Assembly: GCA_046483795.1 (NCBI GenBank)
Contig: JAWOCM010000069.1
Coordinates: 1,922-65,921, forward strand
Length of the DNA: 64,000 bases
Direction: 5' to 3'
From: Desulfuromonadales bacterium
GTDB lineage: Bacteria; Desulfobacterota; Desulfuromonadia; Desulfuromonadales; JAWOCM01
The translations under genes and the position numbers were made by a program. Positions 10,277 through 64,000 of this stretch are shown here, piece by piece. Position 1 is the stretch's first letter. Each line of letters starts with the position of its first letter. The notes below the pieces were generated by a model. That model ran no database searches and was not told the origin of the DNA. It saw only the letters and a program-made list of their open reading frames with translations.

Positions 10277-10365
10277 TCTTCCGGTGACTTTCAACTTGTT
10301 CCATCATAGCCCTTCGGATACAATCAGGAGGGCTATTTTTATACATAAACCAGGCAGGATCCGAT

Positions 10366-12344: not shown

Positions 12345-12499
12345 AAAATGGTTCCGGACTCTTGCCTGAGTGAACTTTGTTTGATTAAACTGTTGGAAGA
12401 AACAATGAAACAGTAGATAAGCCTGGCCTATACCCATGGCGGCGGTCGGTTCGCGTCCTTCCATCCTGAGAATCCGGTCTGGTCATCAGGGAGAGTCCT

Positions 12500-47954: not shown

Positions 47955-49268
47955 ATGTCCGTCGTCGCCATAGTCGGTCGCCCCAATGTGGGGAAATCGA
48001 CCCTGTTCAATCGGATTCTCGGTCAGCGCAAGGCGCTCGTCGACGATTTTCCCGGGGTCACTCGCGATCGCAATTACGCTGAAGTCACGCGCTACGAGAA
48101 GGACTTTACCCTGATCGACACCGGCGGGTTCGAGCCCGTCAGCGAAGATCATCTGCTCAGGCAGATGCGGGAGCAGTCCCAGCTTGCCGTCGAGGAGGCG
48201 GATGTCATCGTTTTCGTTCTCGATGTACGCGAAGGCCTGACCGCTGCAGACCGGGAAGTCGCAGACCAGCTTCGCCAGACGAACAAACCGGTTCTTTATG
48301 TGGTCAACAAGGTCGACGGCGACAAACAGGAAGACCATGCCGCGGAATTCTACGCCCTCGGCATCGACTCTTTTTTCGCCGTTTCCGCCGAACACGGGCG
48401 GGGCCTGGGTGATGTGGTCGATCAGATCGTGAGCCTTCTGCCTGATACGACAAAGCGCAGCCCCGTCGAGGGCGAGACCCGGCTGGCGGTGATAGGTCGG
48501 CCGAACGTCGGCAAATCGTCCCTTGTCAATCGCCTTATCGGATCCGAACGCGTTGTCGCCAACCCTGTTTCAGGAACCACCCGCGACAGCATCGATACGA
48601 GATTCGTGTATAACAGGAACAATTACGTTCTGATCGATACGGCGGGGATCCGGCGAAAGGGCAAGGTCAGTCAGAAGCTGGAAAAATACAGTGTCGTTCA
48701 GGCACTCAAGGCGATGGATCGTGCCCACATTGTTCTCATGATCATCGATGCCGAACAGGGTGTGACCGAGCAGGACGCGACCGTTGCCGGTTATGCCCAT
48801 GAAAAGGGTCGGGCGGTTGTCCTGGTCGTCAACAAGTGGGACCTGGTCGCCAAGGACAATGCGACTATGGGCCGTTACGTCGAGAATCTCCGCCGCTCAT
48901 TCAAGTTTCTGCCTCATACGCCGATCGTTTTCATCTCCGCCCTGACCGGCCAGCGGGTGTCCCGCATCATGGCCGAAGTGGAGAAAGTTGCCGAAGAGTT
49001 CTCGCGAAAGATTTCAACACCGGCGCTCAACAGGGCGGTGCAGAAGGCTGTTGAGGCTCATCCGCCGCCGATGTACCGGGGGCGCCGCCTGAAATTCTTC
49101 TATGCGACGCAATCCGCGGTACGTCCGCCGACCTTTATCATGTTCGTCAGCAGGCCGGAGGGGGTTCATTTTTCTTATCATCGCTTTCTGTCCAACAAGA
49201 TTCGCGATGCTTTCGAACTGAAAAATGTGCCGATCCGTTTGAAATTGCGTCAGCGAGAACGTGACTAG
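47955..49268 (+). CDS. der: Ribosome-biogenesis GTPase Der (EngA)
   Basis: Two G-domains (VAIVGRPNVGKSTLFN and LAVIGRPNVGKSSLVN) plus a C-terminal KH-like domain. Confidence 0.95.
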   Translation: MSVVAIVGRPNVGKSTLFNRILGQRKALVDDFPGVTRDRNYAEVTRYEKDFTLIDTGGFEPVSEDHLLRQMREQSQLAVEEADVIVFVLDVREGLTAADREVADQLRQTNKPVLYVVNKVDGDKQEDHAAEFYALGIDSFFAVSAEHGRGLGDVVDQIVSLLPDTTKRSPVEGETRLAVIGRPNVGKSSLVNRLIGSERVVANPVSGTTRDSIDTRFVYNRNNYVLIDTAGIRRKGKVSQKLEKYSVVQALKAMDRAHIVLMIIDAEQGVTEQDATVAGYAHEKGRAVVLVVNKWDLVAKDNATMGRYVENLRRSFKFLPHTPIVFISALTGQRVSRIMAEVEKVAEEFSRKISTPALNRAVQKAVEAHPPPMYRGRRLKFFYATQSAVRPPTFIMFVSRPEGVHFSYHRFLSNKIRDAFELKNVPIRLKLRQRERD

Positions 49269-49388: not shown

Positions 49389-50729
49389 ATGAGTCTTGTC
49401 GGAAACCTAGAAGATCTGGGCCTGGGGGAAATCCTCCAGATCGTCAGTCTGAGCCGCAAGTCAGGAGTTCTGTCCCTTCAAACCGATGGCAAAGAAGGGA
49501 AGGTCTTCTTTCGGGACGGGCAGGTCATTCGCGCCAACTCCTCGAGTCGGCGCGAAAACGTCGGGGAACTTCTGCTCAGCCGGGAACTGGTCGACTTTGA
49601 AACCCTCAGGGAGGCTGTTCTCGTTCAGCAACAGGAGGGAGACGACCGCCGCCTCGGCGAGATTCTGTCTGAGAGATTCGACGTGTCCCGCGATGCTATC
49701 GAGACTGCCGTCAGGGAGCAGGTCGAGAAAATCGTTTACAGCTTCTTTTCCTGGTCGGAGGGAACGTTCTCCTTCGATCTGGGTGATACCGAAGACCCGG
49801 GGGAAACGTCATTCAACCCGTTCCAGTTCATGCTGGACCAGGGGCTGAATCCCCAATGGCTTGCCATGGAAGGCAGTCGCCAGCTCGACGAGAAGATACA
49901 TCGCGGTGATCCGCTCGAAGACGAGGAGGAAGAAGGACCGACCTTCGATATCGACGACCTGATATCCCGGAATGCCGATTTTTCTGCGCCTGACCGGTCT
50001 CAATCCGAAGACCATTCCCCGGCTTCGACAAACGATAACGAAGTTTCCCTGAACGGGGGAGGTCCTGAGACAAATATCAGAGACATCGAAGACCAGCCGG
50101 CAGCCGCTCCTGATATCGCTGACGGGGGAGCAGAAGCGGCCTTCAATCTGGGCGCGGAGTTGCGCAGGGAGTTCGGCGAAAAGGATATCGACCCCGCTAG
50201 AGGTGTGGCCTCTCCCGGATTGCATCTGCTGCGCGACATGCTGGTCGAACTTCAGAATCCATCACTCGGAGGAGGGATCATCCTTCTGGTGCTGCGCTTC
50301 GCCAGTGAGCTGATGAACCGGGCGGTTATTTTTGCCGTCAAGGACAAGGAAATCGTCGGTCTCGGTCAGTTCGGCATCCAGGTCGAAGGGGAAAATGCCG
50401 ATGCACGCATCCGCAGGATTCGCCTGTCCACCGAGCAGGACTCCGTCTTCAAGCCCCTCGTCCAGTCCATGACGCCTATGAGGAGTGCCCTGGGTGAGGG
50501 ACCGGTCGATACTTATATCGCAGAGCAACTCGGCGGCGACCGGCCCGAGGAGGTTTTTCTCGGTCCCGTCCTCAGCGAGGGAAAAGTCGTGGCCATACTC
50601 TACGGCGACAACCTTCCCGAGCACACGGAAATCGGCAACACCGAGTCCCTGGAGATTTTTCTCTCCCAGGCCGGCCTGGCCATGGAAAAGGCTATATTGG
50701 AGCGGCGCCTGCGGGTCAACCGCGAATAA
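49389..50729 (+). CDS. DUF4388 domain protein with MshEN/T2SSE_N-like tandem motifs and C-terminal GAF-like domain
   Basis: The N-terminus LVGNLEDLGLGEILQIVSLSRKSGVLSLQ...GKVFFRDGQVI is the DUF4388 signature. Residues 57-109 form two 24-aa motifs separated by a 5-aa spacer. The C-terminal 170 aa look GAF-like. Confidence 0.75.
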   Translation: MSLVGNLEDLGLGEILQIVSLSRKSGVLSLQTDGKEGKVFFRDGQVIRANSSSRRENVGELLLSRELVDFETLREAVLVQQQEGDDRRLGEILSERFDVSRDAIETAVREQVEKIVYSFFSWSEGTFSFDLGDTEDPGETSFNPFQFMLDQGLNPQWLAMEGSRQLDEKIHRGDPLEDEEEEGPTFDIDDLISRNADFSAPDRSQSEDHSPASTNDNEVSLNGGGPETNIRDIEDQPAAAPDIADGGAEAAFNLGAELRREFGEKDIDPARGVASPGLHLLRDMLVELQNPSLGGGIILLVLRFASELMNRAVIFAVKDKEIVGLGQFGIQVEGENADARIRRIRLSTEQDSVFKPLVQSMTPMRSALGEGPVDTYIAEQLGGDRPEEVFLGPVLSEGKVVAILYGDNLPEHTEIGNTESLEIFLSQAGLAMEKAILERRLRVNRE

Positions 50730-50755
50730 CAGAATTCAGGAACGGAGCATCCAGC

Positions 50756-51124
50756 GTGGCACAAAAGATTCTCATCACCGAAGATTCGCCGACGATGCGT
50801 TCCCTGATCGTTTCCACCATCCAGGCGATGGGCGATTACGATATCATCGAAGCGGCGAACGGTTTCGAGGCCCTGCGAGAGTTGCCCCGCAACCAGGTCG
50901 ACCTGGTTATCACGGATATCAACATGCCGGACATCAACGGCCTGGAACTGGTCAGTTTCATCAAGACCAACGATCAGTACAAACAGACTCCCCTCTTTAT
51001 CATCAGTACCGAGAGCAGTGAGCGGGACCGCGACAAAGGCATGAAGCTCGGAGCCGATGCTTATCTTGTCAAGCCGTTTTCCCCTCAGGAACTTCAGAAA
51101 CTGATCAAGCGTTTTCTGGGATAG
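50756..51124 (+). CDS. cheY: CheY-like response regulator
   Basis: ILITEDSPTMR...LVITDINMPDINGLE...STE...YLVKPF. Confidence 0.9.
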   Translation: MAQKILITEDSPTMRSLIVSTIQAMGDYDIIEAANGFEALRELPRNQVDLVITDINMPDINGLELVSFIKTNDQYKQTPLFIISTESSERDRDKGMKLGADAYLVKPFSPQELQKLIKRFLG

Positions 51125-51133
51125 GAGGCCCTT

Positions 51134-53161
51134 GTGGGCGACAAGTCATCTCCAAGTGCCATCAAGGAATTCCTCGGCGAGGCCGAGGAGATTCTCGAAG
51201 AGCTCAACCTCGAGTTGGTCGAACTCGGAGAGCGGGCAGACAGCGGAGAGTCCGATCCGGATCTGCTGAACAGCATTTTTCGCGGCGCTCATTCCATCAA
51301 GGGGCTGGCGGGGATGTTCGGCTTCGATGACATCTCCGAGCTCTCGCACCAGATGGAGAGTCTTCTTGACAATCTGCGCCTCGGTAAAGTCCCCCTCAAT
51401 GAGGTCCTTGTCGAAACACTTTTCGATGCCCTCGAGACTTTGACCCGCATTATTCACGGCAAGGGGGAAAGGGAAGATTTTACGCTGGACTTCACCCCCC
51501 TGGTCGGCCGGTTCGATTCTCTCCTTGGAGGCGGAGGCGGGAGCGACAAGGACGAACTCCTCAAGCAGGTCGATCCGACACTGGTCAGCGTTCTGACAGA
51601 ATTCGAGGAGCACAGACTCCTTGAAAATCTCAGGAATGGACATCATCTTTACCGCATAAAGACCTCTTTTGACCTGGCCAGTTTTGATCAGGATCTTGCC
51701 GCCCTGACCGCCGCACTCAAGAGAGAGGCAGAGGTGATCAGCACCCTTCCGAGTGTCGATGAGAACATGGACGGGGGGATCGCCTTTCAATTGATCGTCG
51801 GCACCGCAGTGACCATGGACAAACTGGTTGAAGCCGCCGACCGGAAAAATCTGGATATCGAAAAACTGGCCGGAAAAGCTGCGGAGGCACCTGTCGAGAG
51901 CGCCGAAGGCGCCTCTCCGGAAGCCCAAGAGGCAGGCCGGAACGCCGTCGAAGAGCACGCGAGTCTGCGCTCGATCAGCCGAACAGTCCGTGTCGATATA
52001 GAAAAGCTCGATGTCCTCATGAATATCGTGGGGGAGCTTGTCCTGTGCAGGGCGGCCATTAACGAGAATTGCGAATCTCTCAAGCAAATCGGCAACGTGG
52101 AAATGGTCTCCGAATTGCAGAAGGCGACGCGCAACCTCGAACGACGCCTCGACGAGTTGCAAAAGGGTGTTATGGAGGTCCGCATGGTCCCTGTCAGCCA
52201 GCTCTTCGACAAAATGGCGCGCATCGTGCGACGGGTCTCCGGTGAATACGGGAAACAGGTCTCACTCGATATCCGGGGCGCCGATACGGAACTCGACAAG
52301 CTGATCGTCGAAGAGTTGTCCGATCCGTTGATGCACATCATCCGCAATGCAGTCGACCACGGCATCGAATCGGCTCACGAGCGTCGTGAGATGGGGAAAC
52401 CGGAAAAGGGGACGATCAGCCTGCGTGCCTCGCAGAAAGGGAACCATGTCGTCCTGGAAATTCAGGACGACGGCCATGGGATCGATATCGACAAAGTGCG
52501 CCAGAGAGCCATAGCCAGAGGGCTGATCTCCGCCGATGCGGACATTTCACGTGCGAAACTCGTCGAACTGATTTTCGAGCCAGGATTCTCAACAATGGAC
52601 GAGGTCAGTGAGCTTTCAGGGCGAGGCGTGGGAATGGATGTTGTTAAAAACAACATCGCTTCCTTGTCCGGCATGATAGAAGTCGACTCTGAATTCGGCA
52701 AGGGCACCACCATGACGATCACCCTGCCGATCACCCTTGCCATTATCAAGGCTTTGATCATTGAGATATGCAACAAGACCTATGCCGTTCCGATCAATTC
52801 AGTGATGGAGACGCTCATGGTCAATGCCGATGATATCCGGACCATAGATCGCCGGGAAGTCTACGAACTTCGCGATTCGACCCTTCCACTGATCCGTCTG
52901 GAGAATGTCTTCGATCTGCCCCGAACCGGCGGGAGCCCGGAGCGCTTCTATATTGTCGTTGTCGGTCTGGCCGAGAAGAAAATCGGTATTATCGTCGATG
53001 AACTGGTCGGCCAGCAGGATGTCGTTATAAAGTCCCTGGGCGAAGCGTTGTCCTTTGTCAAGGGGTTTGCCGGCGCCGCTGATCTGGGCAACCAGAAAAC
53101 GGTTCTTGTCCTCGATGTGGGCGGCCTGATCGGGGATACCCTGAAGGGGGAGGCGGCCTGA
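51134..53161 (+). CDS. cheA: Chemotaxis histidine kinase CheA
   Basis: Hpt motif FRGAHSIKGLAGMFG, dimerisation region, HATPase (DDGHGID...SGRGVGMDVV), and a C-terminal CheW-like domain. AGGAGG ribosome-binding site with a GTG start. Confidence 0.95.
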   Translation: MGDKSSPSAIKEFLGEAEEILEELNLELVELGERADSGESDPDLLNSIFRGAHSIKGLAGMFGFDDISELSHQMESLLDNLRLGKVPLNEVLVETLFDALETLTRIIHGKGEREDFTLDFTPLVGRFDSLLGGGGGSDKDELLKQVDPTLVSVLTEFEEHRLLENLRNGHHLYRIKTSFDLASFDQDLAALTAALKREAEVISTLPSVDENMDGGIAFQLIVGTAVTMDKLVEAADRKNLDIEKLAGKAAEAPVESAEGASPEAQEAGRNAVEEHASLRSISRTVRVDIEKLDVLMNIVGELVLCRAAINENCESLKQIGNVEMVSELQKATRNLERRLDELQKGVMEVRMVPVSQLFDKMARIVRRVSGEYGKQVSLDIRGADTELDKLIVEELSDPLMHIIRNAVDHGIESAHERREMGKPEKGTISLRASQKGNHVVLEIQDDGHGIDIDKVRQRAIARGLISADADISRAKLVELIFEPGFSTMDEVSELSGRGVGMDVVKNNIASLSGMIEVDSEFGKGTTMTITLPITLAIIKALIIEICNKTYAVPINSVMETLMVNADDIRTIDRREVYELRDSTLPLIRLENVFDLPRTGGSPERFYIVVVGLAEKKIGIIVDELVGQQDVVIKSLGEALSFVKGFAGAADLGNQKTVLVLDVGGLIGDTLKGEAA

Positions 53162-53163
53162 CG

Positions 53164-53973
53164 ATGTACGAGAGCTATTACGGTTTCAACGAACGTCCGT
53201 TCAGCAAGACGCCCGACCCGCGTTTCCTGTTCATGAGCAAGGGACACAGGGAGGCTCTGGTTCGTCTTATTTACGCCGTGGAGGAACGCGACCTCATCCT
53301 CTTCACCGGTGAGATCGGTTGCGGCAAGACGACCCTGTCCCGGCGCCTGATGGACGAACTCAATGAGGCCGGCTACCGCATCATCCTTTTTGTCAATCCC
53401 CGCCTTACGCCGATGGAGTTTCTTCGGGCGCTGGCACTGCGGCTCGACGTAGAAGCTCCGGCGGGGGGCAAGACCGACCTGCTGGAACAGATCGGCTCTG
53501 CCCTGTATGCTTTTTATGAACGGGATATCTGCCCTGTCCTGGTCATCGACGAGGCGCAACTGATTCCCCATCGCGAGACCTTCGATGAAATCCGTCTGCT
53601 GACCAATTTCCAGCTGGACGATCAGAACCTTTTGAGCGTGGTCCTGATGGGGCAACCCGAACTTCGAAAACGCCTGGCGCACCGCGTGTATGAGCCTTTG
53701 CGACAGCGTATCGGGATGCAGTTCAATCTGCGGCCTCTTGATCTCGAAGAAACGGCCAGTTACCTCGATTTTCGACTGACGACGGCGGGGGGAGAAGCCG
53801 GATTATTCGAGCCGGGAGCGGTTTCAAGAATCTACGAATATTCCGGAGGAATTCCCAGAAAAATCAACCATGCCGCTTCCCTGGCACTGCTTGAGGGTTT
53901 CGGTCGTGAAGCGTCGAATATCGACGCCGGGATCCTTGACGCCGTCATGGAAGAACTGGTGCTGGTTTCCTGA
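53164..53973 (+). CDS. ExeA/GspA/MshM-like AAA+ ATPase
   Basis: YYGFNERPFSKTPDPRFLFMSKGHREALVRLIYAVEERDLILFTGEIGCGKTTLSRRL...LVIDEAQ...FQLDDQNLLSVVLMGQPEL is the characteristic ExeA N-terminal module. Confidence 0.8.
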   Translation: MYESYYGFNERPFSKTPDPRFLFMSKGHREALVRLIYAVEERDLILFTGEIGCGKTTLSRRLMDELNEAGYRIILFVNPRLTPMEFLRALALRLDVEAPAGGKTDLLEQIGSALYAFYERDICPVLVIDEAQLIPHRETFDEIRLLTNFQLDDQNLLSVVLMGQPELRKRLAHRVYEPLRQRIGMQFNLRPLDLEETASYLDFRLTTAGGEAGLFEPGAVSRIYEYSGGIPRKINHAASLALLEGFGREASNIDAGILDAVMEELVLVS

Positions 53974-53994
53974 AAGGACAGCGGGGTCATTGCA

Positions 53995-54825
53995 ATGTTG
54001 AATCTTTCCGATATACGTAAAAAGGCCGGCAGCAAGGTAAAAAAGAACAAGCGTTCCGAAGGAGACCCGGCCGAAGAGTCTGACAGGGCTTTGTCAACCA
54101 GGGCAACACCCGTCGCGCCGAGCAGTGCCGGGACGCAGACCGGACAGCAGGGCGAAGAGAACGCCTCTTCCGGCACGAATCCGGAGGAAAAGGGGATTTC
54201 GCCGCCAGAAACGAGCTCGTCGACATCGGAATCTTCCGGTCAAGCGTCCGGGAAGCGACCGGAAAGCGCGGGCTTCTCCATGCAAGGGACCACGGATCCG
54301 CTCGAATCCCTTTTCCGTGCCAATCCGGAGTTGGGGCTGGCAACGGAAGAAGCCTATTTCGAAGGACTCGTCGGACAGGACCATGAGACTGAAGAGGCTT
54401 TTCGCCAGCTTCTTTCATTCGCCCTCGGCGAGGAAGAATACGCAGTCGATATCCAGGATGTTCAGGAGATCATCAAGCTGCGTGAGATGACCGATGTTCC
54501 CCGGGTTCCCGACTTCGTCCTGGGGATCATCTCCCTGCGCGGCAATATCATCCCGGTCTTTGATCTCAAGAGGCGCCTGCACCTGGGAACCATAGAGCCG
54601 ACGATCTCGACGCGGATCGTGGTCTGCCGTGCCGGAGGGAAATCTGTCGGCCTGGTCGTCGATAAAATCAACCAGGTGGTTCGCCTGCCTGAAGGGGCCA
54701 TTGAAAAGGTCTCCGGGCTCCTGAGCGGTGTCAATAAAGATCTCGTGGAAGGCGTTGGGCGCTACGAGGGCCGCATGCTTATTCTACTCGACCTGTCTAT
54801 CGTTCTGGCGGTTGAGCAAAGATGA
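53995..54825 (+). CDS. cheW: CheW-domain protein with an about 125-aa disordered S/E/P/G-rich N-terminal extension
   Basis: The C-terminal half LLSFALGEEEYAVDIQDVQEIIKLREMTDVPRVPDFVLGIISLRGNIIPVFDL is a CheW fold. Confidence 0.85.
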   Translation: MLNLSDIRKKAGSKVKKNKRSEGDPAEESDRALSTRATPVAPSSAGTQTGQQGEENASSGTNPEEKGISPPETSSSTSESSGQASGKRPESAGFSMQGTTDPLESLFRANPELGLATEEAYFEGLVGQDHETEEAFRQLLSFALGEEEYAVDIQDVQEIIKLREMTDVPRVPDFVLGIISLRGNIIPVFDLKRRLHLGTIEPTISTRIVVCRAGGKSVGLVVDKINQVVRLPEGAIEKVSGLLSGVNKDLVEGVGRYEGRMLILLDLSIVLAVEQR

Positions 54826-54837
54826 AGGAGGGATTTC

Positions 54838-55212
54838 GTGTCCAAAAAGAAGATTCTGGTCGTCGAAGACGAAGAAAGTCTGTTGAAGCTGGAAAGCATT
54901 TTGCTGACGTCCAAGGGGTACGAAGTCCAGGGAGTGACAACCGGCCAGGCGGCTCTTGATGCCATTGCCGAAGAGAAACCCGACCTGGTTCTGTTGGACA
55001 TCATGCTTCCCGAGATGGACGGATTCGAGGTGTGCCGCCGAATCAAGGAGAATCCCCAAATCAATGACCTGCCCGTTGTCATGCTGACGGCGAAGAAGAG
55101 TCGCGAAGATATGGCGCGCGGACAGCAGGTGGGCGCCGACTGGTACATCACCAAACCTTTCAAGTCGGTCAATGTGATCGAAACGATACAGAGATTTTTG
55201 AATAAAGGATGA
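54838..55212 (+). CDS. Single-domain response regulator
   Basis: ILVVEDEESL...LVLLDIMLPEMDG...MLTAK...YITKPF. GAAGGAGG ribosome-binding site with a GTG start. Confidence 0.9.
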   Translation: MSKKKILVVEDEESLLKLESILLTSKGYEVQGVTTGQAALDAIAEEKPDLVLLDIMLPEMDGFEVCRRIKENPQINDLPVVMLTAKKSREDMARGQQVGADWYITKPFKSVNVIETIQRFLNKG

Positions 55213-55249
55213 TGGCGGTGCCATCCACAGAAGTTTTTTGAAGGTATCC

Positions 55250-55792
55250 ATGATGGAACATCGGCAAAACAGGGAAACACCGGAAGAAGAGACAGGCCGC
55301 AAGGAAATTCAGCTGGCCTGTTTCCGGATCGCAGAGGAAATGTATGCCCTGGATATTATGCGGATCAAAGAAATCATCCGGCCGCAGAAACTGACTCCTG
55401 TTCCCAAAGCTCCGGCTTTCGTGGAAGGTGTCATTAATCTGAGAGGCGCGGTTATCCCGGTCGTCGACCTGAGAAAGCGTTTCGATCAGCCGATCGATCC
55501 GGACAACAGGGCAACACGTATACTGATCTGTACACTTTCCGGAAAAGTGGTGGGTCTTATTGCCGACGAAGTCACAGAGGTACGTCGATATACCCGGCGG
55601 GAAGTGCAGCCGGCTCCTCATTTTCTCAAAGGAAAAGGGGCCGAATATTTTCTCGGCGTCTGTCGTCGGGAAGACGAACTGGTCATGCTCATCGATCTGG
55701 AAAAGATTCTTACCACCGACGAAAAAATCAACCTTGAGAAGGTCGATTCGTTCTCTGGGCATATGCAACCCGCCCCGGGCGATAAAGAGTAG
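55250..55792 (+). CDS. cheW: Chemotaxis coupling protein CheW
   Basis: LACFRIAEEMYALDIMRIKEIIRPQKLTPVPKAPAFVEGVINLRGAVIPVVDL. The ATG at 55250 has a GAAGG ribosome-binding site; the track start at 55238 is a TTG. Confidence 0.9.
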   Translation: MMEHRQNRETPEEETGRKEIQLACFRIAEEMYALDIMRIKEIIRPQKLTPVPKAPAFVEGVINLRGAVIPVVDLRKRFDQPIDPDNRATRILICTLSGKVVGLIADEVTEVRRYTRREVQPAPHFLKGKGAEYFLGVCRREDELVMLIDLEKILTTDEKINLEKVDSFSGHMQPAPGDKE

Positions 55793-55854
55793 CCTGCCCC
55801 TTTTCCGGGAAATCGCCGCTGTCTTTTCAGCAGATTCTTATTGAAGGTATTTCG

Positions 55855-56745
55855 ATGATTGTCAATTGTCCGACGTGTCATGTTCGCATGAAGCTTGATG
55901 CTTCCCGACATGACGGCAAAAGAGTTACAATCCGTTGCAGAAGATGTCGGCACGTATTCAAGACGAACATAGCGACATCCCCCGCCAGTGAAACAGGGCG
56001 GGTTCTTATCGTTCATTCCGACGAGGAACTCTGTGCCACAATCGCCGATATCTTCAGGCGAGAAAATATTCCCTATGATATCTGCCATGATGGCCAGGCG
56101 GCCCTTCGCACCATGGCAGCAAAGCCTCCGGCTGTGGCCCTGATCGATGTCGCTTTGCCGGGATTTTACGCTTTTGAGGTTGTCGAGAAGGTTCGCCGTC
56201 AGCCAGCCCTGCACGATGTCAGGATCATTCTTCTGTCTTCGGTTTATAACAAGGCGGCTTACAAGCGCTCACCCACATCCCTTTTCGGGGCGGACGATTA
56301 TCTCGAAAAGCATCATATATCCGACCAGTTGGTCAGCAAGGTCCGTCGACTGGGAGGGGGTGGCGGCATCTCGAAACCCCGGGAGGCAAATGCCGGGGTG
56401 GAGACAAAACAGAAAGAGGCCGGACCGGAGAATGCCGAGAAAATCAATACCAGGGTCCAGCAGGCGGAAGACCATGAAGTGAGTTCGTCTTCAGCGGATT
56501 CGGGCTGGGAAAAGGCTCGAAGATTGGCCCGTATCATTGTTTCCGATATAGCCCTCTACAACGAGGAACGGGTTGCAGAGGGGATCCGTACCGGAACTTT
56601 TTACCACATTCTGGGGGCTGAAGTGGAAGAGGGGCGACGATTGTTCGCCGAGAGGGTCGCTGAAGATATCCGCAGCAAACAGGATCTTCTTCAGGAGGCT
56701 TTTGACGCTTTCATCGAACGTCGCCAGAATGAACTGCAGAGCTGA
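55855..56745 (+). CDS. MJ0042-type zinc-ribbon plus receiver-like domain plus conserved uncharacterised C-terminal module
   Basis: MIVNCPTCHVRMKLD...IRCRRCRHVFKT (CxxC...CxxC). The receiver-like core is VLIVHSDEE...ALIDVALPG...LLSS...LEK. The C-terminal module is ARRLARIIVSDIALYNEERV... Confidence 0.7.
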   Translation: MIVNCPTCHVRMKLDASRHDGKRVTIRCRRCRHVFKTNIATSPASETGRVLIVHSDEELCATIADIFRRENIPYDICHDGQAALRTMAAKPPAVALIDVALPGFYAFEVVEKVRRQPALHDVRIILLSSVYNKAAYKRSPTSLFGADDYLEKHHISDQLVSKVRRLGGGGGISKPREANAGVETKQKEAGPENAEKINTRVQQAEDHEVSSSSADSGWEKARRLARIIVSDIALYNEERVAEGIRTGTFYHILGAEVEEGRRLFAERVAEDIRSKQDLLQEAFDAFIERRQNELQS

Positions 56746-56759
56746 TAGATGGTGAAGAC

Positions 56760-58772
56760 GTGACGAAAATACAGGATATATCTCATTTGCTGCAATCTCC
56801 CGAAGAAGAGCGCAGATTGCAGGGGCTTCGCGGGCTGGCCGAGAGCACAGAAGAGTTTCCCCGGGAATGGATCTACCAGGCTCTCGGGGACGACTCCTGG
56901 CGAGTGCGCAAGGAAGGGGTGGATCTCTTTTTGAGGCGCCCAGAGAATGCCCGCTTCGCCGACGAGGTGGTAAAACTGCTCCATTCGGAGGAGAATGCCG
57001 GCCTGCGCAATGCTGCGATGGAGATACTTATCCGGCTCGGCCGACAGGCCGTGCCCCATCTGCTGTCTGAAATCGGCACGCAGGATCATGATGTACGCAA
57101 GTTCATTCTTGATATCCTCGGCGAGATCGGCGATCCAGGATGTGTCCCCACCCTGGTAGAGGCCTTGAAAGATCCGGATGAAAATGTCCGCTCCGCCGCC
57201 GCTGAAAATCTCGGCAAACTCAGAGCCTCCGAAGCGATACCGGCGCTTCTGGATGCCATGGAGACGGACGACCTCTGGTTGCGTTTCACTATACTGGAGG
57301 CTTTGGGGCAGATCGGCGGCCAGATCGATGAAGAGCGGCTGCTTCGTTTCAAGGATGAAAGGTTGCTCCGCAAGGCGCTGATCGACTGTCTCGGACGTGT
57401 TGGCTCTGTTTGCGTGGTCCCCGCTATTGTCGAGGCTCTGGACGACGATATGCGCAATGTGCGCGAATCCGCCGTTGTCGCTCTGGCCCGCATCGCCGAG
57501 TCTTATCCCGAGGAGGTTCGCAGATCCCTCTCCGGCGTCCGTCAGACAGCGGCTGCGGACCATATTGCCGAATTGCTCGATCACCAGCAACAGGGGATTC
57601 GCCAGGCGTCGCTAAAGCTTCTGGGCTTTTTGTCGGAGCCACGCTACGCGCCGCGACTGCTCGATCTGCTTGATGACCAGTCCATGGTCGAGTCCGCCAT
57701 GCAGGCCTTGATCGCTATGGGAGCCGACGGGGCGGCCCAACTCGCGTCCATTGTTTCGCCCGAAGAACCCCGTCGGTGTGCCTACGTCTCCTACCTCATC
57801 GGTGAAACCGGCTACGGCGCCGGTCGGGATTTCCTTCTGGCGTCCATCGGTTCCGATGAGGACGAATTGCGGATGGTGGCGCTGCAGGCGCTGGGAAAAA
57901 TCGGGGATGCCTCCTCTATCGCTCCCCTGGTGGAACACCTCGAAAATGAAACCGAGGAAACCCGCCAGGCGGTGCAGACCGCCCTGGAACGTATCGGTCG
58001 ACGCTGCCGACAGGAATTGACCGAAGCGCTTGAGCCGTTACTGGACTCGCAGAATCCGGAATTACGCACCAGCGTCATCATGGTCCTCGGCCAGCTTCTG
58101 GGCGCGGAATTCGAGGACCATGTGATCAGGGCGCTCAAGGACCCATCGCCCGATGTGCGTCGAGCAGCGGTGACCGTTCTTGACGGTCATCCTTACGATG
58201 GCCAGATCCGGGCTCTGAAGATGGCGCTGACGGACGAGGACGCCGAGGTGCGCGCTCAGGCCGCAGAAGTGCTGGGTCGCATCGACGACCCCCAGGCTGT
58301 CGAGGCTCTCGGACTGGCCTGTGGTGACGAAGATATCTGGGTTCGCTCGACGGCCGTGCGTTCTCTGGGGCACTTCGAAAATGACGCAGCCTTTTCCGTT
58401 GTTTCCCGAACGGCCGACGATTCCGTAGGCCTGGTCACTATCGCCGCGCTGGAGACACTGACGGCCATTGATGCCGGTAAAGCCCGTCCTTTACTCCTCG
58501 ACGCTCTTTACCACCGGGATGAGGAAGTGGTCAAGGCCGCCATGCAGCTTCTTTTTTCTTCGGCCTACATGGACTGGTCCCGCGAAGAACGCGAGCATCT
58601 TATCTCCCACCCGCACTGGGACGTTCGCCTGACATTTATCCGCAACCTGTTTGAAACACAGGGTGAGAATTGCCGGAGTCAACTCGTGGAAAGATTGAAG
58701 ATGGAGAGGGAAGAACCGGTAAGACAGGCGATCCAGGAGTGTTTGGCTCTTATGGACAGTTTCGAGGTTTAG
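56760..58772 (+). CDS. HEAT-repeat (PBS-lyase-type) protein, 670 aa
   Basis: More than a dozen repeats of the D.(D).VR..A..ALG.IG pattern, e.g. DPDENVRSAAAENLGKL, DPSPDVRRAAVTVL and DEDAEVRAQAAEVLGRI. Confidence 0.85.
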   Translation: MTKIQDISHLLQSPEEERRLQGLRGLAESTEEFPREWIYQALGDDSWRVRKEGVDLFLRRPENARFADEVVKLLHSEENAGLRNAAMEILIRLGRQAVPHLLSEIGTQDHDVRKFILDILGEIGDPGCVPTLVEALKDPDENVRSAAAENLGKLRASEAIPALLDAMETDDLWLRFTILEALGQIGGQIDEERLLRFKDERLLRKALIDCLGRVGSVCVVPAIVEALDDDMRNVRESAVVALARIAESYPEEVRRSLSGVRQTAAADHIAELLDHQQQGIRQASLKLLGFLSEPRYAPRLLDLLDDQSMVESAMQALIAMGADGAAQLASIVSPEEPRRCAYVSYLIGETGYGAGRDFLLASIGSDEDELRMVALQALGKIGDASSIAPLVEHLENETEETRQAVQTALERIGRRCRQELTEALEPLLDSQNPELRTSVIMVLGQLLGAEFEDHVIRALKDPSPDVRRAAVTVLDGHPYDGQIRALKMALTDEDAEVRAQAAEVLGRIDDPQAVEALGLACGDEDIWVRSTAVRSLGHFENDAAFSVVSRTADDSVGLVTIAALETLTAIDAGKARPLLLDALYHRDEEVVKAAMQLLFSSAYMDWSREEREHLISHPHWDVRLTFIRNLFETQGENCRSQLVERLKMEREEPVRQAIQECLALMDSFEV

Positions 58773-58778
58773 GAGCCG

Positions 58779-59666
58779 ATGCTCTTTCTGACACCAGAAA
58801 TCCCCATGAACGACGAAGAATTCCTTTTATTGAAGGATTTCGTCTATCAGCATTGCGGCCTTCATTTCTCTGCCGATACCAAGTATCTTCTCGAGAAGCG
58901 TCTCGGCAAACGTCTTCAGGCACATCGGCTCAAGAGTTTCAAGGACTACTATTATTTCCTGCGTTACAATCAGAAAAAAGAGGCTGAGCTGGTAGAAGTC
59001 CTGAATGCGCTGACGACGAACGAGACCTATTTTTTTCGAGAGGACTATCAGCTAAAGACGTTCATCGAAGAGATCATTCCCGAAGTCACGGCGCGTCGCA
59101 AACGGGAGGGAAGTCGCAAACTCCGGATCTGGAGCGCCGGGTGCTCCTCCGGCGAAGAGGCCTACACCATTGCCATGCTGCTTCTGGAAAAGCCGGAACT
59201 GAGCGGGTGGGATATCGAGATCATCGGAACAGATATCAGCCAGCGCGTGCTCGGAATGGCCCGCAAGGGGGTTTACGGCCAGCCCTCCTTTCGTACCACC
59301 GACAGCGCCTACTTGCAAAAATATTTCCTGCCGACGGAAGATGGCAAATACCGCATCTGCGACAAGGTCAAGAGTTTGGTCACGATCAGTTATCTCAACC
59401 TCTTCGACCGCTCCCGCGTCGGTCTGCTCGGGCATGTGGATGTCATTTTCTGCCGGAACGTGATCATCTATTTTGATAGTGCCGCCAAAAAAAAGGTGGT
59501 TGAGGGGCTGTACGAACGCTTGCGTCCCGATGGTTTTCTGCTGCTGGGACACTCCGAATCGCTCATGAATATCAGCACGTCTTTTGTTTTGCGTCACTTT
59601 ACCAATGACATGGTCTATCAACGATCTCAGGCGGCACGGTCCGGAAGAGAAGGGGATGAGCGGTGA
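58779..59666 (+). CDS. cheR: Chemotaxis protein methyltransferase CheR
   Basis: TNETYFFRE...LRIWSAGCSSGEEAYTIAMLL...IFCRNVIIYFD. Confidence 0.9.
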   Translation: MLFLTPEIPMNDEEFLLLKDFVYQHCGLHFSADTKYLLEKRLGKRLQAHRLKSFKDYYYFLRYNQKKEAELVEVLNALTTNETYFFREDYQLKTFIEEIIPEVTARRKREGSRKLRIWSAGCSSGEEAYTIAMLLLEKPELSGWDIEIIGTDISQRVLGMARKGVYGQPSFRTTDSAYLQKYFLPTEDGKYRICDKVKSLVTISYLNLFDRSRVGLLGHVDVIFCRNVIIYFDSAAKKKVVEGLYERLRPDGFLLLGHSESLMNISTSFVLRHFTNDMVYQRSQAARSGREGDER

Positions 59667-60760
59667 AGGATATCCGTGTTCTTGTCGTCGACGATTCGGC
59701 ATTCAATCGTCGCACAATCACAAAGATGCTCGACTCCGAAGCGGGGATCGAGGTTGTCGGGTACGCCTCCGACGGCGAGGAAGCCCTGCGAAAGGTCTTC
59801 GATCTGAAACCGGACCTGGTCACCCTCGACCTGGAAATGCCGCGTATGGATGGTTTTACTTTTCTGCGCATCCTGATGAACAACTGTCCGACTCCGGTTA
59901 TTGTCGTTTCGGCTCGAACCCAGGATGAGGATGTCTTCAAGGCACTCGAATTCGGTGCCGTGGAGTTCGTCGCCAAACCATCGGCGCGAATCTCGCCCGA
60001 CCTGATCAATATCCGCAAGGGGCTGGTTCAGAAAGTTTTCGCCGCCGCCGGCACTGATATGGAGAAGGTCCTGGGGAGATCGACCATCAACCCCTCTGTG
60101 GCTCGCAGAACTCCTCAGGTTCGGGCACCGAAGACCCGATCTGTAGCGAGAACCCTGCACAAGTCGGTGGAAGGCAAGGCATCCGTCGTCGTCATCGGAG
60201 CGTCGACCGGCGGTCCTCCCGCCCTTCAGAAAGTCCTGGAGGACATCGACCACATGGAGTCCGTCGCAGTCATTGTCGCCCAGCACATGCCCTCCGGCTT
60301 CACGCGGGCTTTCGCCGACCGGTTGAATCGATTCTGCAGGATGGAAATAAGGGAAGCCCAGACCGGAGACAAAGTACAGCCTCAACGTGTCCTGATAGCT
60401 CCTGGAGGGAAGAATCTTTTTCTTGTCAGACACGGCCGCGATGTTGTGGCGCAGCTTAAGGACCTAAACAGCGAATATCGTTATGTGCCTTCGGTCGATG
60501 CCTTGTTTCAAAGCGCTGCAGGCATCTATGGCAAGGATTTGCTGGGTGTCGTCCTGACAGGGATGGGCAACGACGGAGCATCCGGAGTGCAGAGTATCCG
60601 AAAGGCGGGCGGACAGGTCCTTGCTGAATCGGAAGAGACAAGTGTCGTGTACGGTATGCCCAAAGAGGCCGTTGCCACGGGTTGCGTCGACAGGGAATTG
60701 CCTTTGCGAGAGATCGGAGGAGAGATTGCTCTGCGTTGCCGAAGTCACGAAAATCATTAG
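59663..60760 (+). CDS. cheB: Protein-glutamate methylesterase/glutaminase CheB (receiver plus esterase)
   Basis: VLVVDDSAF...LVTLDLEMPRMDG, then VVIGASTGGPPAL...AQHMP...LTGMGNDG. The GTG start overlaps the cheR stop. Confidence 0.9.
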   Translation: MKDIRVLVVDDSAFNRRTITKMLDSEAGIEVVGYASDGEEALRKVFDLKPDLVTLDLEMPRMDGFTFLRILMNNCPTPVIVVSARTQDEDVFKALEFGAVEFVAKPSARISPDLINIRKGLVQKVFAAAGTDMEKVLGRSTINPSVARRTPQVRAPKTRSVARTLHKSVEGKASVVVIGASTGGPPALQKVLEDIDHMESVAVIVAQHMPSGFTRAFADRLNRFCRMEIREAQTGDKVQPQRVLIAPGGKNLFLVRHGRDVVAQLKDLNSEYRYVPSVDALFQSAAGIYGKDLLGVVLTGMGNDGASGVQSIRKAGGQVLAESEETSVVYGMPKEAVATGCVDRELPLREIGGEIALRCRSHENH

Positions 60761-60837
60761 GAAAAGGTAGATATTTAAAGCTTTTGCTGCTACGATGTGC
60801 CCCCCAAGAGCATTTCTGTGTCTTATAGGAGATCGCG

Positions 60838-61662
60838 ATGCCTGAGAATAAACAAGATAAATCACCGAAGGCGGAAAAAGTCGAAGAGTTTCTTCATATC
60901 TTCAAAAAAGGGGCCGACTTTACGCAGGACCTTCTCAAGGAAAACGAGCGCCTGCGATTCGAGGTCCTCAAACTCGAGGAAGAGAACAGGGATTTGAAGG
61001 AGGTCTCAGGCGGGGATGAAACCGTTTTGCAGAAACGGATTCAGGCGCTGGAGGAAGAAAAACAGGAAATTCTGAACCGTATCAAGAAGGTCGAGGCGGA
61101 AAACATGGATTTCGCCAACCGTTATGTTGATATCGAAAATGAAAACAACATGCTGGCGAACCTCTATATCGCGTCCTATCAGCTTCATTCGACTCTTGAT
61201 TTTCGGGAAGTCCTCCAGATTATTACTGAAATCATCATCAACCTGATCGGGGCCGAAGAGTTCGGAATCCTGTTGCTGGACGAAAAGCAGAACAGGCTTC
61301 AGGCAGTGGCCTCCGAAGGGTTGGAGTTGAGTGATATTCCTGTGGTCGCGCTTGGCCAGGGCCTCATCGGGGAGATTGCCAAGACGGGAGAAAATCATTT
61401 CTTCCAGGAACTGGATAAATACGAAAAGGATATCAACACCCCGATGGTCTGTATCCCGCTGAAGATCAAAGAGCGGGTCATCGGCGTGATTGCGATTTAT
61501 CAGCTCCTGGAGCAGAAAAGTCATTTCGAGGACGTCGATTATGAACTTTTTACGCTGCTGGCCGGACATGCTGCCACAGCAATTTTTTCTTCCAAGCTCT
61601 ATTCCGAATCGGAACGCAAGCTGAGTACAATCCAGGGCTTTATCGATTTAATGACGAAATAA
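60838..61662 (+). CDS. Coiled-coil plus GAF domain protein
   Basis: The N-terminal 100 aa form a heptad-rich coiled coil (LKLEEENRDLKE...LEEEKQEILNRIKKVEAEN), followed by a GAF-like core (LDFREVLQIITEIIINLIGAEEFGILLLDE...PLKIKERVIGVIAIYQL). Confidence 0.8.
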   Translation: MPENKQDKSPKAEKVEEFLHIFKKGADFTQDLLKENERLRFEVLKLEEENRDLKEVSGGDETVLQKRIQALEEEKQEILNRIKKVEAENMDFANRYVDIENENNMLANLYIASYQLHSTLDFREVLQIITEIIINLIGAEEFGILLLDEKQNRLQAVASEGLELSDIPVVALGQGLIGEIAKTGENHFFQELDKYEKDINTPMVCIPLKIKERVIGVIAIYQLLEQKSHFEDVDYELFTLLAGHAATAIFSSKLYSESERKLSTIQGFIDLMTK

Positions 61663-61686
61663 CCTTGAAGGTTCGTGGAGGGATAC

Positions 61687-62064
61687 ATGTCATCATATAA
61701 GGTATTGATTGTCGAAGACTCTCCGACCATGCGCCAGTTGATTGTTTTTGCTCTGAAGCGCATCCGGGGGGTCGAGATAGTCGAGGCGAATGACGGAGTG
61801 GATGGACTGAAGAAAATCTCCAGCGAGAAATTCGATCTGATTTTTACCGACATCAATATGCCGATCATGGATGGCCTTAAATTGGTCAGCCTGGTGAGAA
61901 ATGATCAGAATTACAAGGATGTTCCCATCTGCATCATCACCACTGAAGGGGCCAGTGAAGACCGTGAGCGAGCCCTTGGTCTCGGTGCGAATGATTATAT
62001 CACCAAGCCGATCCAGACAACAAAGATACTCGATGTCGCCAGGCGATTGCTGGCTATGGAATAA
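61687..62064 (+). CDS. cheY: CheY-like response regulator (paralog of 50756-51124)
   Basis: VLIVEDSPTMRQL...LIFTDINMPIMDGL...TTE...YITKP. A GGAGGG ribosome-binding site precedes the ATG at 61687. Confidence 0.9.
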   Translation: MSSYKVLIVEDSPTMRQLIVFALKRIRGVEIVEANDGVDGLKKISSEKFDLIFTDINMPIMDGLKLVSLVRNDQNYKDVPICIITTEGASEDRERALGLGANDYITKPIQTTKILDVARRLLAME

Positions 62065-62119: not shown

Positions 62120-62171
62120 TGCCGCAATTGACAGGGGAAAAAATACTTGAATAGAATGGATGGAGGACCTT

Positions 62172-62390
62172 TTGGCGAAAGAAGAAGCGATTGAAGTTGA
62201 GGGCAAGGTCATTGAGCCCTTGCCTAACGCAATGTTCAAGGTCGAGCTCGATAACGGCCATGTTGTGCTGGCCCATATTTCCGGCAAGATGCGCAAGTTC
62301 TATATTCGCATCCTTCCGGGGGACCGGGTCACTGTTGAACTTTCACCTTACGATTTGAGTCGCGGTCGTATCACCTATCGGGAAAAGTAG
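62172..62390 (+). CDS. infA: Translation initiation factor IF-1
   Basis: (M)[69 protein letters not shown]. The TTG at 62172 lies 5 nt after a GGAGG; the track ATG at 62160 lacks a ribosome-binding site. Confidence 0.9.
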
Positions 62391-62640: not shown

Positions 62641-64000
62641 ATGAACAAGTCTTATGAGCCGAGGTCGATCGAGGAAAAGTGGCAGAAGATCTGGGAGAAG
62701 CGCAAAGCTTTCAGCGTTTCCGAGGAGGCCGACAAGAGCAAATATTATCTTCTGGAGATGTTCCCCTATCCTTCGGGTCGCATCCATATGGGGCATGTCC
62801 GCAACTATTCCATCGGTGATGTCGTAGCCCGGTTCAAACGTATGCAGGGATTCAACGTCTTGCATCCCATGGGATGGGACGCTTTCGGAATGCCGGCGGA
62901 AAATGCTGCGATACAGCATGGGACCCATCCTGCTGAATGGACCTATGAAAATATCGACAAAATGCGAACCCAGCTCAAGCGCATGGGGCTTTCCTACGAC
63001 TGGGACAGGGAATTCGCCACCTGTGACGTTGATTATTACAAATGGGAACAACTGATTTTTCTGAGAATGCTCGAAAAGGGGCTGGCCTACAAGAAAAGCA
63101 GTTTCGTGAACTGGTGTCCCCTGTGCCAAACGGTTCTTGCCAACGAACAGGTCGAAGACAACGCCTGTTGGCGCTGCGACAGCGAGGTCGAACAGAAGGA
63201 GCTCGAACAGTGGTTTTTCCGTATCACCGCCTATGCCGAAGAGCTCCTCGAATGGACCGACAAGCTTCCCGGCTGGCCGGAGCGTGTTCTGGCCATGCAG
63301 CAGAACTGGATCGGGAAAAGTTACGGGTGCGAGATCGAGTTTCCCGTCGAGGATGCCGATGAAACTGTTCGCGTCTTTACGACCCGCGCCGACACGCTGC
63401 ACGGGGTGACCTTCATGAGCCTTGCGCCGGAGCACCCTCTGGTGGAGAAGCTGACCACGCCTGAGTGGCAGGAGGCTGTCCAGTCTTTTCGTGACAAGGT
63501 CGGGCTTCAGGACAAAGCCCTGCGCACCAGCGATGAGTTGGACAAGGAGGGTGTTTTTACCGGATCGTACTGCTTCCACCCTCTGACAGGGCGAAAGATT
63601 CCTGTCTTTATCGCAAACTTCGTGCTCATGGATTACGGTACCGGTTCCGTTATGGCGGTACCTGCTCACGATCAGCGGGATTTTGAATTTGCCCGCAAAT
63701 ACGATCTTCCTGTGGTCGTCGTTATCCAACCCGAAGGGGAAGATTTAAGCGGGGATTCGCTGGAGAGCGCCTGGACCGGACCCGGAAGACTAATCAATTC
63801 AGACGAGTTCGACGGCCAGGACAATGAAGAGGCGAAGAAGAAAATCGCTGCCCGTCTCGAAAAGAAGGGCAAAGGCCAGGAGACGGTCAACTTCCGCCTG
63901 CGCGACTGGGGAGTGTCCCGCCAGCGCTACTGGGGGACTCCTATCCCGGTGATCTATTGCGACGGATGCGGTACCGTGCCGGTGCCGGAAGCGGACCTGC
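62641..64000 (+). CDS. leuS: Leucine-tRNA ligase, N-terminal part (3' end outside window)
   Basis: Absent from the ORF track because no stop codon lies in the window. Direct translation from the ATG at 62641 gives [24 protein letters not shown]...[27 protein letters not shown]... Confidence 0.9.

Follow-up and report, generated by a model that had tools for sequence, protein, structure and literature searches.

The 13-gene chemosensory cluster

The window analysed here is a 64-kb stretch of an uncultured Desulfuromonadales genome, and it carries 13 open reading frames (ORFs) on one strand (49389-62064, +) that include a core of chemosensory (Che) proteins. The original prediction had described this region as a receptor-less chemosensory operon with non-canonical partner proteins, and all 13 ORFs were found where it had placed them. 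We numbered them g1 to g13 along the plus strand. Their Pfam domain content agreed with the earlier list, apart from corrections to g1 and g8 that are given below. The genes are:

g1, 49389..50729, +, PATAN (DUF4388) protein with a tandem MshEN-like insert, an acidic linker and a C-terminus that is GAF-like but divergent (Pfam DUF4388, 110 bits)
g2, 50756..51124, +, CheY-like single-domain receiver (Response_reg, 98 bits)
g3, 51134..53161, +, CheA histidine kinase with P1, P3, P4 and P5 (Pfam domains Hpt, H-kinase_dim, HATPase_c and CheW)
g4, 53164..53973, +, ExeA-like AAA+ ATPase of 269 aa, ATPase domain only (AAA_22, 88 bits)
g5, 53995..54825, +, CheW with a low-complexity N-terminal extension of ~130 residues (CheW domain at residues 138-271 of 276)
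g6, 54838..55212, +, single-domain receiver (Response_reg, 104 bits), in the slot of the receptor gene of the Nitrospirota cluster described below
g7, 55238..55792, +, second CheW (CheW, 134 bits)
g8, 55855..56745, +, zinc ribbon, atypical receiver and conserved helical C-terminal domain (Response_reg, 43.5 bits; Zn_ribbon_4, 30.2 bits)
g9, 56760..58772, +, 670-aa HEAT-repeat protein (HEAT_2, 259 bits, 8 stretches)
g10, 58779..59666, +, CheR methyltransferase (CheR, 196 bits, and CheR_N)
g11, 59663..60760, +, CheB methylesterase with a receiver (CheB_methylest, 207 bits, and Response_reg; NCBIfam CheB, 395 bits, cut-off 293)
g12, 60838..61662, +, coiled-coil N-terminus and GAF domain (GAF_3, 1.2e-17, and GAF_2)
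g13, 61675..62064, +, CheY-like single-domain receiver (Response_reg, 102 bits)

The CheA encoded by g3 has kept its phospho-histidine, H53, together with the N, G1, F and G2 boxes. Every phospho-site residue is also kept in the receivers of g2, g6, g11 and g13. In g2 these positions are the E/D-D pair, D57, S87, Y106 and K109, while those of g6 and g13 are likewise canonical. The signature motifs reported earlier for the two adaptation enzymes were found in the translations, SAGCSSGEEAYT in the CheR of g10 and GASTGGP and GMGNDG in the CheB of g11, which also has AQHMP.

No methyl-accepting chemotaxis protein (MCP) is encoded in the cluster, as had been claimed. When the whole window was searched by tblastn with a probe for the MCP signalling hairpin, the best E-value was 0.26, and the Pfam model MCPsignal matched none of the 13 proteins. 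The "beta group" of che clusters is defined by a core of CheA, two CheW, CheR, CheB and two or more CheY in a cluster that lacks an mcp gene (PMC2577667), and the window has this complement. None of the marks of the flagellar (F) class, namely a linked MCP, flagellar genes or CheZ, CheC, CheX, CheD and CheV, occurs among the 13 genes. The earlier view of a non-flagellar chemosensory pathway is supported.

The cluster is bounded by housekeeping genes, again as previously described. NCBIfam equivalog models identify their products as Era, Der, IF-1 and LeuRS:

era, 46864..47766, +, upstream flank, outside the system (NCBIfam GTPase Era, 376 bits, cut-off 237; same flank in relatives)
der/engA, 47955..49268, +, upstream flank (NCBIfam TIGR03594 Der, 593 bits; counterpart GSU2225 engA, PMC8242959)
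infA, 62160..62390, +, downstream flank (TIGR00008 IF-1, 128 bits)
leuS, 62641..64000, +, downstream flank, 5' part that runs off the window (TIGR00396 leuS_bact, 680 bits)

Between g1 and g13 the intergenic gaps are 26, 9, 2, 21, 12, 25, 62, 14, 6, -4, 77 and 12 nt, which confirms the range of -4 to 77 nt that had been given. Transcription of the 13 genes as one operon is consistent with the sequence and plausible. It is not demonstrated, since promoter-like and terminator-like sites in the window were no more frequent than in shuffled sequence and Rfam gave no match. The Rfam scan covered the whole window and detected no riboswitch or other RNA, including no riboswitch for cyclic di-GMP (c-di-GMP) or cyclic GMP-AMP upstream of g1. 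A strong, near-consensus sigma-70-like promoter (TTGACA, 18 nt, TAGAAT) lies at 62128-62157, just ahead of infA, which suggests that this gene is transcribed independently of the che operon.

Conserved gene order and an MCP-bearing sister cluster

Related loci (numbered with the prefix L) came from a genome contig scan with an alignment of g8, which gave at least 22 true loci, and from a metagenome scan with an alignment of g12, and they were compared gene by gene. One g8 pattern also matched generic receivers, and neither Geobacter sulfurreducens nor Myxococcus xanthus was among the matches listed in the genome scan. The neighbourhood comparison bore out the conservation of the 13-gene order. 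The order from g1 to g13 and the flanks, era and der on one side and infA and leuS on the other, are identical across about 20 Desulfuromonadales or Geobacter-type loci. Those sharing both flanks include, among others, L004, L007, L009, L010, L121, L138, L150, L154, L160 and L161. Like the window, these about 20 loci contain no MCP.

Individual proteins of these loci are 33-88% identical to those of the window. In the genome-scan loci the identities were 71-85% for g6, 79-82% for g13, 67-78% for g2, 60-71% for g4, 66-68% for g12, 57-69% for g10, 47-64% for g3, 35-47% for g8 and 33-45% for g9. Metagenome loci widen some of these ranges; g2 spans 61-83% and g13 59-88% in relatives, and g6 spans 63-85% among the Desulfuromonadales-type loci. 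Two of the loci come from Geobacter metagenome-assembled genomes (MAGs), L005 and L010, and have the entire order of 12-13 genes at 33-80% identity. The g6 receiver is missing from L005 and from L145, two otherwise complete clusters of the Desulfuromonadales/Geobacter type in which no receiver lies between the CheW genes.

A second form of the cluster was found in Nitrospirota, and it contains an MCP. The metagenome scan had been ranked on a Nitrospirota g12 sequence, which biases the sample, so the following counts are not natural frequencies. Of 42 loci that span the interval from CheW to HEAT, 22 have an MCP gene between the two CheW genes. The order in these loci is CheY-CheA-AAA_22-CheW-MCP(-MCP)-CheW-HEAT-CheR-CheB-ccGAF-CheY, where ccGAF denotes the coiled-coil GAF protein. 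Most of them lack g6 and g8, and the infA/leuS flank is found in none of the 22. The MCP-less loci among the 42 number 19-20 and have g8 and usually g6. Two long contigs carry full Nitrospirota clusters, which read PatA_N-CheY-CheA-AAA_22-CheW-MCP-CheW-HEAT-CheR-CheB-GAF-CheY and begin with a PatA_N (PATAN) protein of 374 aa.

The Nitrospirota clusters (L162, L163, L085, L091, L099 and others) thus share with the window the order PATAN-CheY-CheA-AAA_22-CheW-...-CheW-HEAT-CheR-CheB-ccGAF-CheY, at 26-66% identity per protein. They differ in that an MCP stands at the position of g6, g8 is usually absent and the flanks are others. Identity to the window is 60% for ccGAF, 55% for the ATPase, 55% for CheR, 41% for CheA and 26% for the HEAT protein. 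The two CheY proteins can be told apart by position: the first Nitrospirota CheY matches g2 at 61% and g13 at 42% identity, whereas the last matches g13 at 66% and g2 at 47%. Orthology between the two forms of the cluster is, as judged by these sequences, position-specific.

The Nitrospirota MCPs have HAMP and MCPsignal domains, joined in many of them by a sensor domain and by a C-terminal Phosphonate-bd domain, which resembles periplasmic binding proteins (L091:2663-5515, L099:2552-5437, L100:2662-5553, L115:2955-5477, L124:977-3502 and L086:422-3265). For one such MCP, the best 120 relatives have the same architecture, and those that are named belong to Nitrospirota or Thermodesulfovibrio. 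A position C-terminal to the signalling hairpin is an unusual site for a ligand-binding module. At two loci the Phosphonate-bd domain is encoded by a gene of its own just upstream of the MCP gene (L014:932-1885 and L102:921-1880). L102 also has a hybrid kinase gene, sCache-HAMP-PAS-HisKA-HATPase-REC, between the MCP and HEAT genes (L102:3510-5960). In L131 a second CheA and another MCP gene follow ~2 kb downstream of the MCP-bearing cluster (L131:13043-16514).

The MCP-bearing Nitrospirota form of the cluster is a new comparative result of the present analysis. Because an MCP is embedded in these relatives, the system appears to be built to work with an MCP and to depend on one. The PATAN, AAA+, HEAT and ccGAF proteins appear to be integral parts of it, because they persist with or without an embedded MCP. 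That the accessory genes are unrelated passengers is ruled out by their co-conservation in order across two phyla. The original prediction had named two findings that together would speak against it, an MCP reproducibly co-conserved with the cluster in relatives and accessory genes that were mere passengers. The first was found, as an MCP is reproducibly embedded in relatives. The second was not: co-conservation with the Che core in two phyla shows that the accessory genes belong to the system, as had been assumed.

The accessory proteins

The protein at the head of the cluster, g1, is 446 aa long and had been labelled a DUF4388/GAF protein with an MshEN-like part. DUF4388 was confirmed. For the GAF domain the evidence comes from orthologues: the C-terminus matches GAF_2 in six of nine of them (best E = 1.4e-5), while that of the window copy matched no Pfam family. 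In a profile search of the PDB this C-terminus gave 3oov as its best match, with a marginal E-value of 0.12, and a profile-profile comparison (hhalign) with the GAF domain of g12 was negative. A single-sequence AlphaFold2 model of g1 reached a mean pLDDT confidence score of 35.7 and was unusable.

MshEN domains were recognised by tandem 24-residue motifs of the form RLGxx(L/V/I)(L/V/I)xxG... that score above the threshold of a curated model. In g1 two motif-like stretches lie in tandem at residues 57-80 and 88-111, the first having N for R and E for G. Its score against the NCBIfam c-di-GMP_motif model NF053729 is 25 bits, below the curated cut-off of 38. NF053729 is matched by five of the nine orthologues (best E = 7.5e-9), and the Nitrospirota orthologues have no match.

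Most orthologues of g1 are ~565 aa long and have the architecture PATAN-REC-GAF-like, with an internal receiver (REC) kept in six of nine. The window g1 has an acidic low-complexity linker in place of the receiver, as seen by comparison with ~565-aa orthologues that have it (L004:3321-5012, L005:3672-5363, L009:3219-4925 and L010:3338-5038). Of the two domains of a PatA-type (PATAN-REC) protein, the window copy therefore has PATAN and not the receiver.

The ATPase g4 has a Walker A motif, GEIGCGKT, and a Walker B motif, VLVIDE. Its 4852 database relatives at E <= 1e-20 include proteins from NCBI annotated as the ExeA family (ExeA/GspA). The best 120 of these 4852 share 72-95% identity, and those named among them are from Desulfuromonas, Geoalkalibacter and Desulfuromonadales MAGs. 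Relatives at ~40% identity are mostly 400-800 aa long, and those outside the cluster 500-800 aa. Against TIGR03015, the PEP-CTERM-associated ATPase, g4 scored 223 bits, below the cut-off of 324.5. By its sequence g4 is best described as ExeA-like and not as ExeA, outside both ExeA/GspA and TIGR03015.

For g8 both domains of the earlier label "zinc-ribbon-receiver" were found, and the correction concerns the receiver, which is atypical in having H-S in place of the acidic pair D12-D13 while keeping D57. The g8 family has 1341 members at E <= 1e-5. In an alignment of 25 homologues the CxxC...CxxC cysteines are invariant, an invariant HxD replaces the DD pair and the helical C-terminus is conserved. 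The AlphaFold2 model of g8 (pLDDT 81.5) has a helical bundle at residues 191-295. A Foldseek search of the PDB with this model matched receiver domains alone and gave no match to the helical C-terminal domain. Outside che clusters, g8-like genes of Nitrospirota have a sigma-70 family gene behind them in 11 of 11 informative loci (L008, L011-L013, L015, L016 and L019-L023). Counted from where the g8-like match ends, the sigma-70 match begins about 0.2 to 1.3 kb further on, as in L020, where 10001-11305 is followed by 11500-12465. This adjacency hints at a role of g8 related to transcription.

The HEAT-repeat protein g9 was found in both variants of the cluster, MCP-less and MCP-bearing. The GAF domain of g12 is clear-cut, with PDB matches to the GAF structures 5w10 (1.2e-8) and 3oov (1.9e-6), whereas that of the g1 C-terminus is seen via orthologues only. 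Orthologues of g12 in Nitrospirota are 59-61% identical to it (59% in L014, 60% in L162), and the alignment has long invariant stretches. That g12 is a cryptic MCP is ruled out, as it has no match to MCPsignal and coexists with a real MCP in the Nitrospirota loci. The G+C content is 0.48 over g12 and g13 (61000-62000 of the window) and 0.54-0.60 across the remaining cluster; despite this low value the two proteins rank among the most conserved of the cluster.

Identity, proposed working and comparison with known systems

The original prediction did not recognise this combination of genes as a characterised system, and here it has to be revised. Clusters of this type have been published as the mcp-less "beta group", which Tran et al. 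(2008) found conserved in delta-proteobacteria including M. xanthus and whose preliminary knockouts pointed to regulation of extracellular matrix (PMC2577667). Thomas et al. (2008) reported that the che8 cluster of M. xanthus is conserved in G. sulfurreducens (PMC2330069). The published layout in the latter is engA (GSU2225), a "response regulator" (GSU2224), CheY (GSU2223), CheA (GSU2222), an ATPase (GSU2221) and CheW (GSU2220) (PMC5585712, PMC8242959). The window has the same order from der through g1, g2, g3 and g4 to g5. By position, g1 corresponds to GSU2224, g3 to GSU2222 (EsnC), g4 to GSU2221 and g5 to GSU2220 (EsnB).

Nor are these genes uncharacterised, given that mutant phenotypes are known for the positional orthologues of g1, g3, g4 and g5. 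Deletion of esnB or esnC abolishes electrode colonisation and leaves Fe(III) oxide reduction unaffected (Chan et al. 2017, PMC5585712), and insertions in GSU2221 are deleterious on electrodes (PMC5585712). A Tn5 insertion in GSU2224 gave an aggregating, oxygen-tolerant strain (PMC8242959). The unlinked MCP GSU1704 (EsnA), a receptor of class 40H with a GAF sensor, has the same mutant phenotype as esnB and esnC and contacts EsnB and EsnC in two-hybrid assays; the network also includes the diguanylate cyclase GSU3376 (EsnD) (PMC5585712). In a strain with an esnB insertion, the signal of a cyclic-dinucleotide reporter changes in the direction that a lower c-di-GMP level would predict (PMC8835794). 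The Esn network is still termed "suggested" in the literature of 2026. As to whether the architecture already has a defined function, then, genetic phenotypes are at hand and a defined biochemical mechanism is not.

Rather than representing a novel kind of system, the window cluster is a copy of a described mcp-less cluster type. We estimate, from gene content and order, a probability of about 80% that it is of the Che8/Geobacter beta-group/Esn kind and depends on an MCP. Its receptor is most probably encoded elsewhere in the genome.

Several points weigh against this reading. Orthology to GSU2210-2224 and Che8 is deduced from published gene order together with the loci from Geobacter MAGs rather than from reciprocal best hits. 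We infer that "cluster 5" of Tran et al. is GSU2210-2224, whose locus tags do not appear in their text or supplements, because cluster 5 is mcp-less and che8-like and the alpha group is excluded by its HD-domain gene (PMC2577667). The MCP-bearing relatives belong to another phylum, and their receptor, of the form sensor-HAMP-MCP and a periplasmic-binding-protein-like domain, does not resemble the GAF receptor EsnA. In the 64 kb that represent this genome, no cognate MCP or cyclase was seen. GGDEF genes are linked to only two or three of about 25 MCP-bearing loci and lend weak support, and the MshEN match of g1 lies under the curated cut-off. Finally, the sole reported output of Che8 in M. xanthus is transcriptional and runs via an orphan CheY (PMC9040617).

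The proposed working starts from the observed gene content, intact catalytic motifs, synteny and MCP-bearing sister architecture, and it carries the G. sulfurreducens results over to the window organism by analogy. One or more unlinked MCPs of the 40H type, the counterpart of EsnA in G. sulfurreducens, would nucleate an array with the CheWs g5 and g7 and the CheA g3. CheR (g10) and CheB (g11) would adapt the unlinked MCP by methylation. CheA would phosphorylate the receivers g2, g6 and g13, CheB and an unlinked receiver-diguanylate cyclase of the EsnD type. The output would be c-di-GMP-dependent surface colonisation and matrix production, and not flagellar switching. For each of the accessory proteins we propose a role with low confidence: g1 may be a c-di-GMP-responsive or localisation adaptor, g4 an ATP-driven assembly or remodelling factor, g9 a scaffold that binds phosphorylated CheY, by analogy with the HEAT protein of M. 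xanthus Che7, and g12 an input for small-molecule ligands.

Direct linkage to cyclases was seen in a few MCP-bearing relatives. A REC-GGDEF gene directly follows the last CheY in L091 (L091:11601-12572), a GGDEF gene fragment directly precedes the first CheW in L014 (L014:1-279) and a further candidate lies in L088 (about 7002-7490, -). Taken together with EsnD in Geobacter and the MshEN-like motif of g1, this linkage makes an output through c-di-GMP, perhaps with feedback, the most economical model; the feedback step is conjectural. An extension of this model goes further, and we regard it as less likely than not. It holds that the PATAN(MshEN-like)-GAF protein, the ExeA-like ATPase, the HEAT protein and ccGAF are a conserved set that defines a distinct class of array in Desulfuromonadota, Nitrospirota and probably Myxococcota. 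The pathway's own output cyclase would make c-di-GMP that acts back on the array via the PATAN insert, the ATPase would remodel or position the array, and the Desulfuromonadales would have "outsourced" their receptor. If so, a CheY-like receiver would have filled the MCP slot, a zinc-ribbon pseudo-receiver would have been added and the array could open to several unlinked receptors.

The lack of an MCP in the 64-kb window and in about 20 Desulfuromonadales-type loci could also be taken at face value, as the mark of a receptor-independent array in which g12, g9 or g1 scaffolds CheA and CheW and is the substrate of CheR and CheB. The coiled coil of g12 and its identity of 59-61% across phyla would fit such a role. 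We nevertheless consider it highly improbable, considering that all three proteins coexist with an embedded MCP in Nitrospirota and so do not substitute for one. Moreover, no cluster protein matches MCPsignal, the catalytic motifs of CheR and CheB are canonical and EsnA, itself an MCP, interacts with the orthologous CheW and CheA, mutants of which have the same phenotype (PMC5585712). Of the two inputs offered by the original prediction, the unlinked MCP is therefore kept as the most probable one. The non-MCP scaffold finds no support, as the Nitrospirota MCP occurs beside the HEAT, GAF and PATAN proteins and EsnA contacts CheW and CheA.

Outputs other than c-di-GMP synthesis can also be argued for. 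The PATAN protein and the ExeA-like ATPase might act mainly on a type IV pilus or a type II secretion-like machine, considering that cyanobacterial PATAN response regulators bind the pilus motor PilB1, that MshEN-type motifs are typical of the N-termini of type II secretion and type IV pilus ATPases (both bioRxiv 10.1101/2021.06.11.447907), that g1 has an NCBIfam match to such a motif and that relatives of g4 are named ExeA/GspA. This is unlikely, as the flanks of all loci examined contain no pil or gsp genes and g4 is shorter than the long ExeA-like proteins, whose C-terminal part it does not have. The published phenotypes, furthermore, concern electrode colonisation, aggregation and cyclic dinucleotide levels, although pili could lie downstream of these. 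A main output in transcription, by way of an orphan CheY-like regulator phosphorylated by CheA and/or an action of g8 on a sigma factor, seems doubtful too, if a little less so. CheA8 of M. xanthus has been implicated in the phosphorylation of MXAN_4468, an orphan receiver that acts on HrcA and on the transcription of groEL (PMC9040617), and in Nitrospirota the g8-like genes outside che clusters precede a sigma-70 family gene in all 11 informative loci. Yet g8 is absent from most MCP-bearing clusters, the D12-D13 pair is missing from the g8 receiver, the window has no sigma factor gene close to the cluster and the sigma-70 adjacency is circumstantial.

Recognising the operon as a further copy of the Che8/beta-group/Esn pathway, needed in Geobacter for electrode colonisation, removes a false lead, that of a receptor-free machine. 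Its interest rests on the conserved accessory proteins and on the comparison of forms with and without the MCP, and not on a missing receptor gene. The accessory proteins and the Che core are equally tightly conserved across phyla. The MCP-bearing Nitrospirota form and the MCP-less Desulfuromonadales form are a natural experiment on how an array gains or relocates its receptor. Given such feedback, the candidate c-di-GMP site of the PATAN protein would complete a regulatory loop within a pathway that matters for bioelectrochemical biofilms.

Among known systems, the G. sulfurreducens cluster shares most with that of the window. Both have an upstream flank of two GTPase genes including engA/der, both run from a PATAN-type "response regulator" through CheY, CheA and the ATPase to CheW, and both are mcp-less with CheA, CheW, CheB and CheR. 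They differ in that the window g1 lacks the internal receiver kept by most orthologues, those of the Geobacter MAGs included. The window organism is an uncultured member of the Desulfuromonadales, and its comparison with strain PCA was by published gene order only.

In M. xanthus, Che8 comprises MXAN_4751-4759 and has no Mcp8, according to the tables of Moine et al. (2014) (PMC3945109), and thus agrees with the window in having no mcp. Read in reverse, the order given there is CheY-CheA-CheW-CheW-(two non-che genes)-CheR-CheB-CheY, which parallels g2-g3-g5-g7-(g8, g9)-g10-g11-g13 (PMC3945109). Going by the adjacency of the locus tags in the same tables, Che8 differs in having no ATPase gene between CheA8 and CheW8b (PMC3945109). 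The two non-che genes, MXAN_4754 and MXAN_4755, were matched to g8 and g9 by position alone. The function of Che8 has been called unknown, and CheA8 has been implicated in phosphorylating the orphan CheY-like MXAN_4468 (PMC9040617).

Che7 of M. xanthus is likewise a Che-like pathway with a HEAT-repeat protein, which partners CheY7 (summarised in PMC9040617). It differs in having its own Mcp7 in the cluster (PMC3945109). Of the two marks of a Che7-type system, an Mcp7-type receptor and a HEAT partner, the window has the second only. It has no MCP, and it has extra genes for PATAN, AAA+, zinc-ribbon-REC and ccGAF proteins.

The cyanobacterial PatA-type (PATAN-REC) regulators of the Tax/Pix systems offer a parallel for g1, as there too a PATAN (PF14332) protein stands at the head of a Che-like operon. 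Most orthologues of g1 share the PATAN-REC architecture with them. The window g1 differs in lacking REC and in having a GAF-like C-terminus and an MshEN-like insert.

The Wsp system of Pseudomonas differs in that its MCP (WspA) and its cyclase (WspR) are encoded in the operon and that it is not known to have PATAN, AAA+, HEAT or GAF accessory proteins. Its logic, in which an array of MCP, CheW and CheA is adapted by CheR and CheB and the phosphorylation of a REC-GGDEF protein leads to biofilm, is the same as that proposed for the window cluster.

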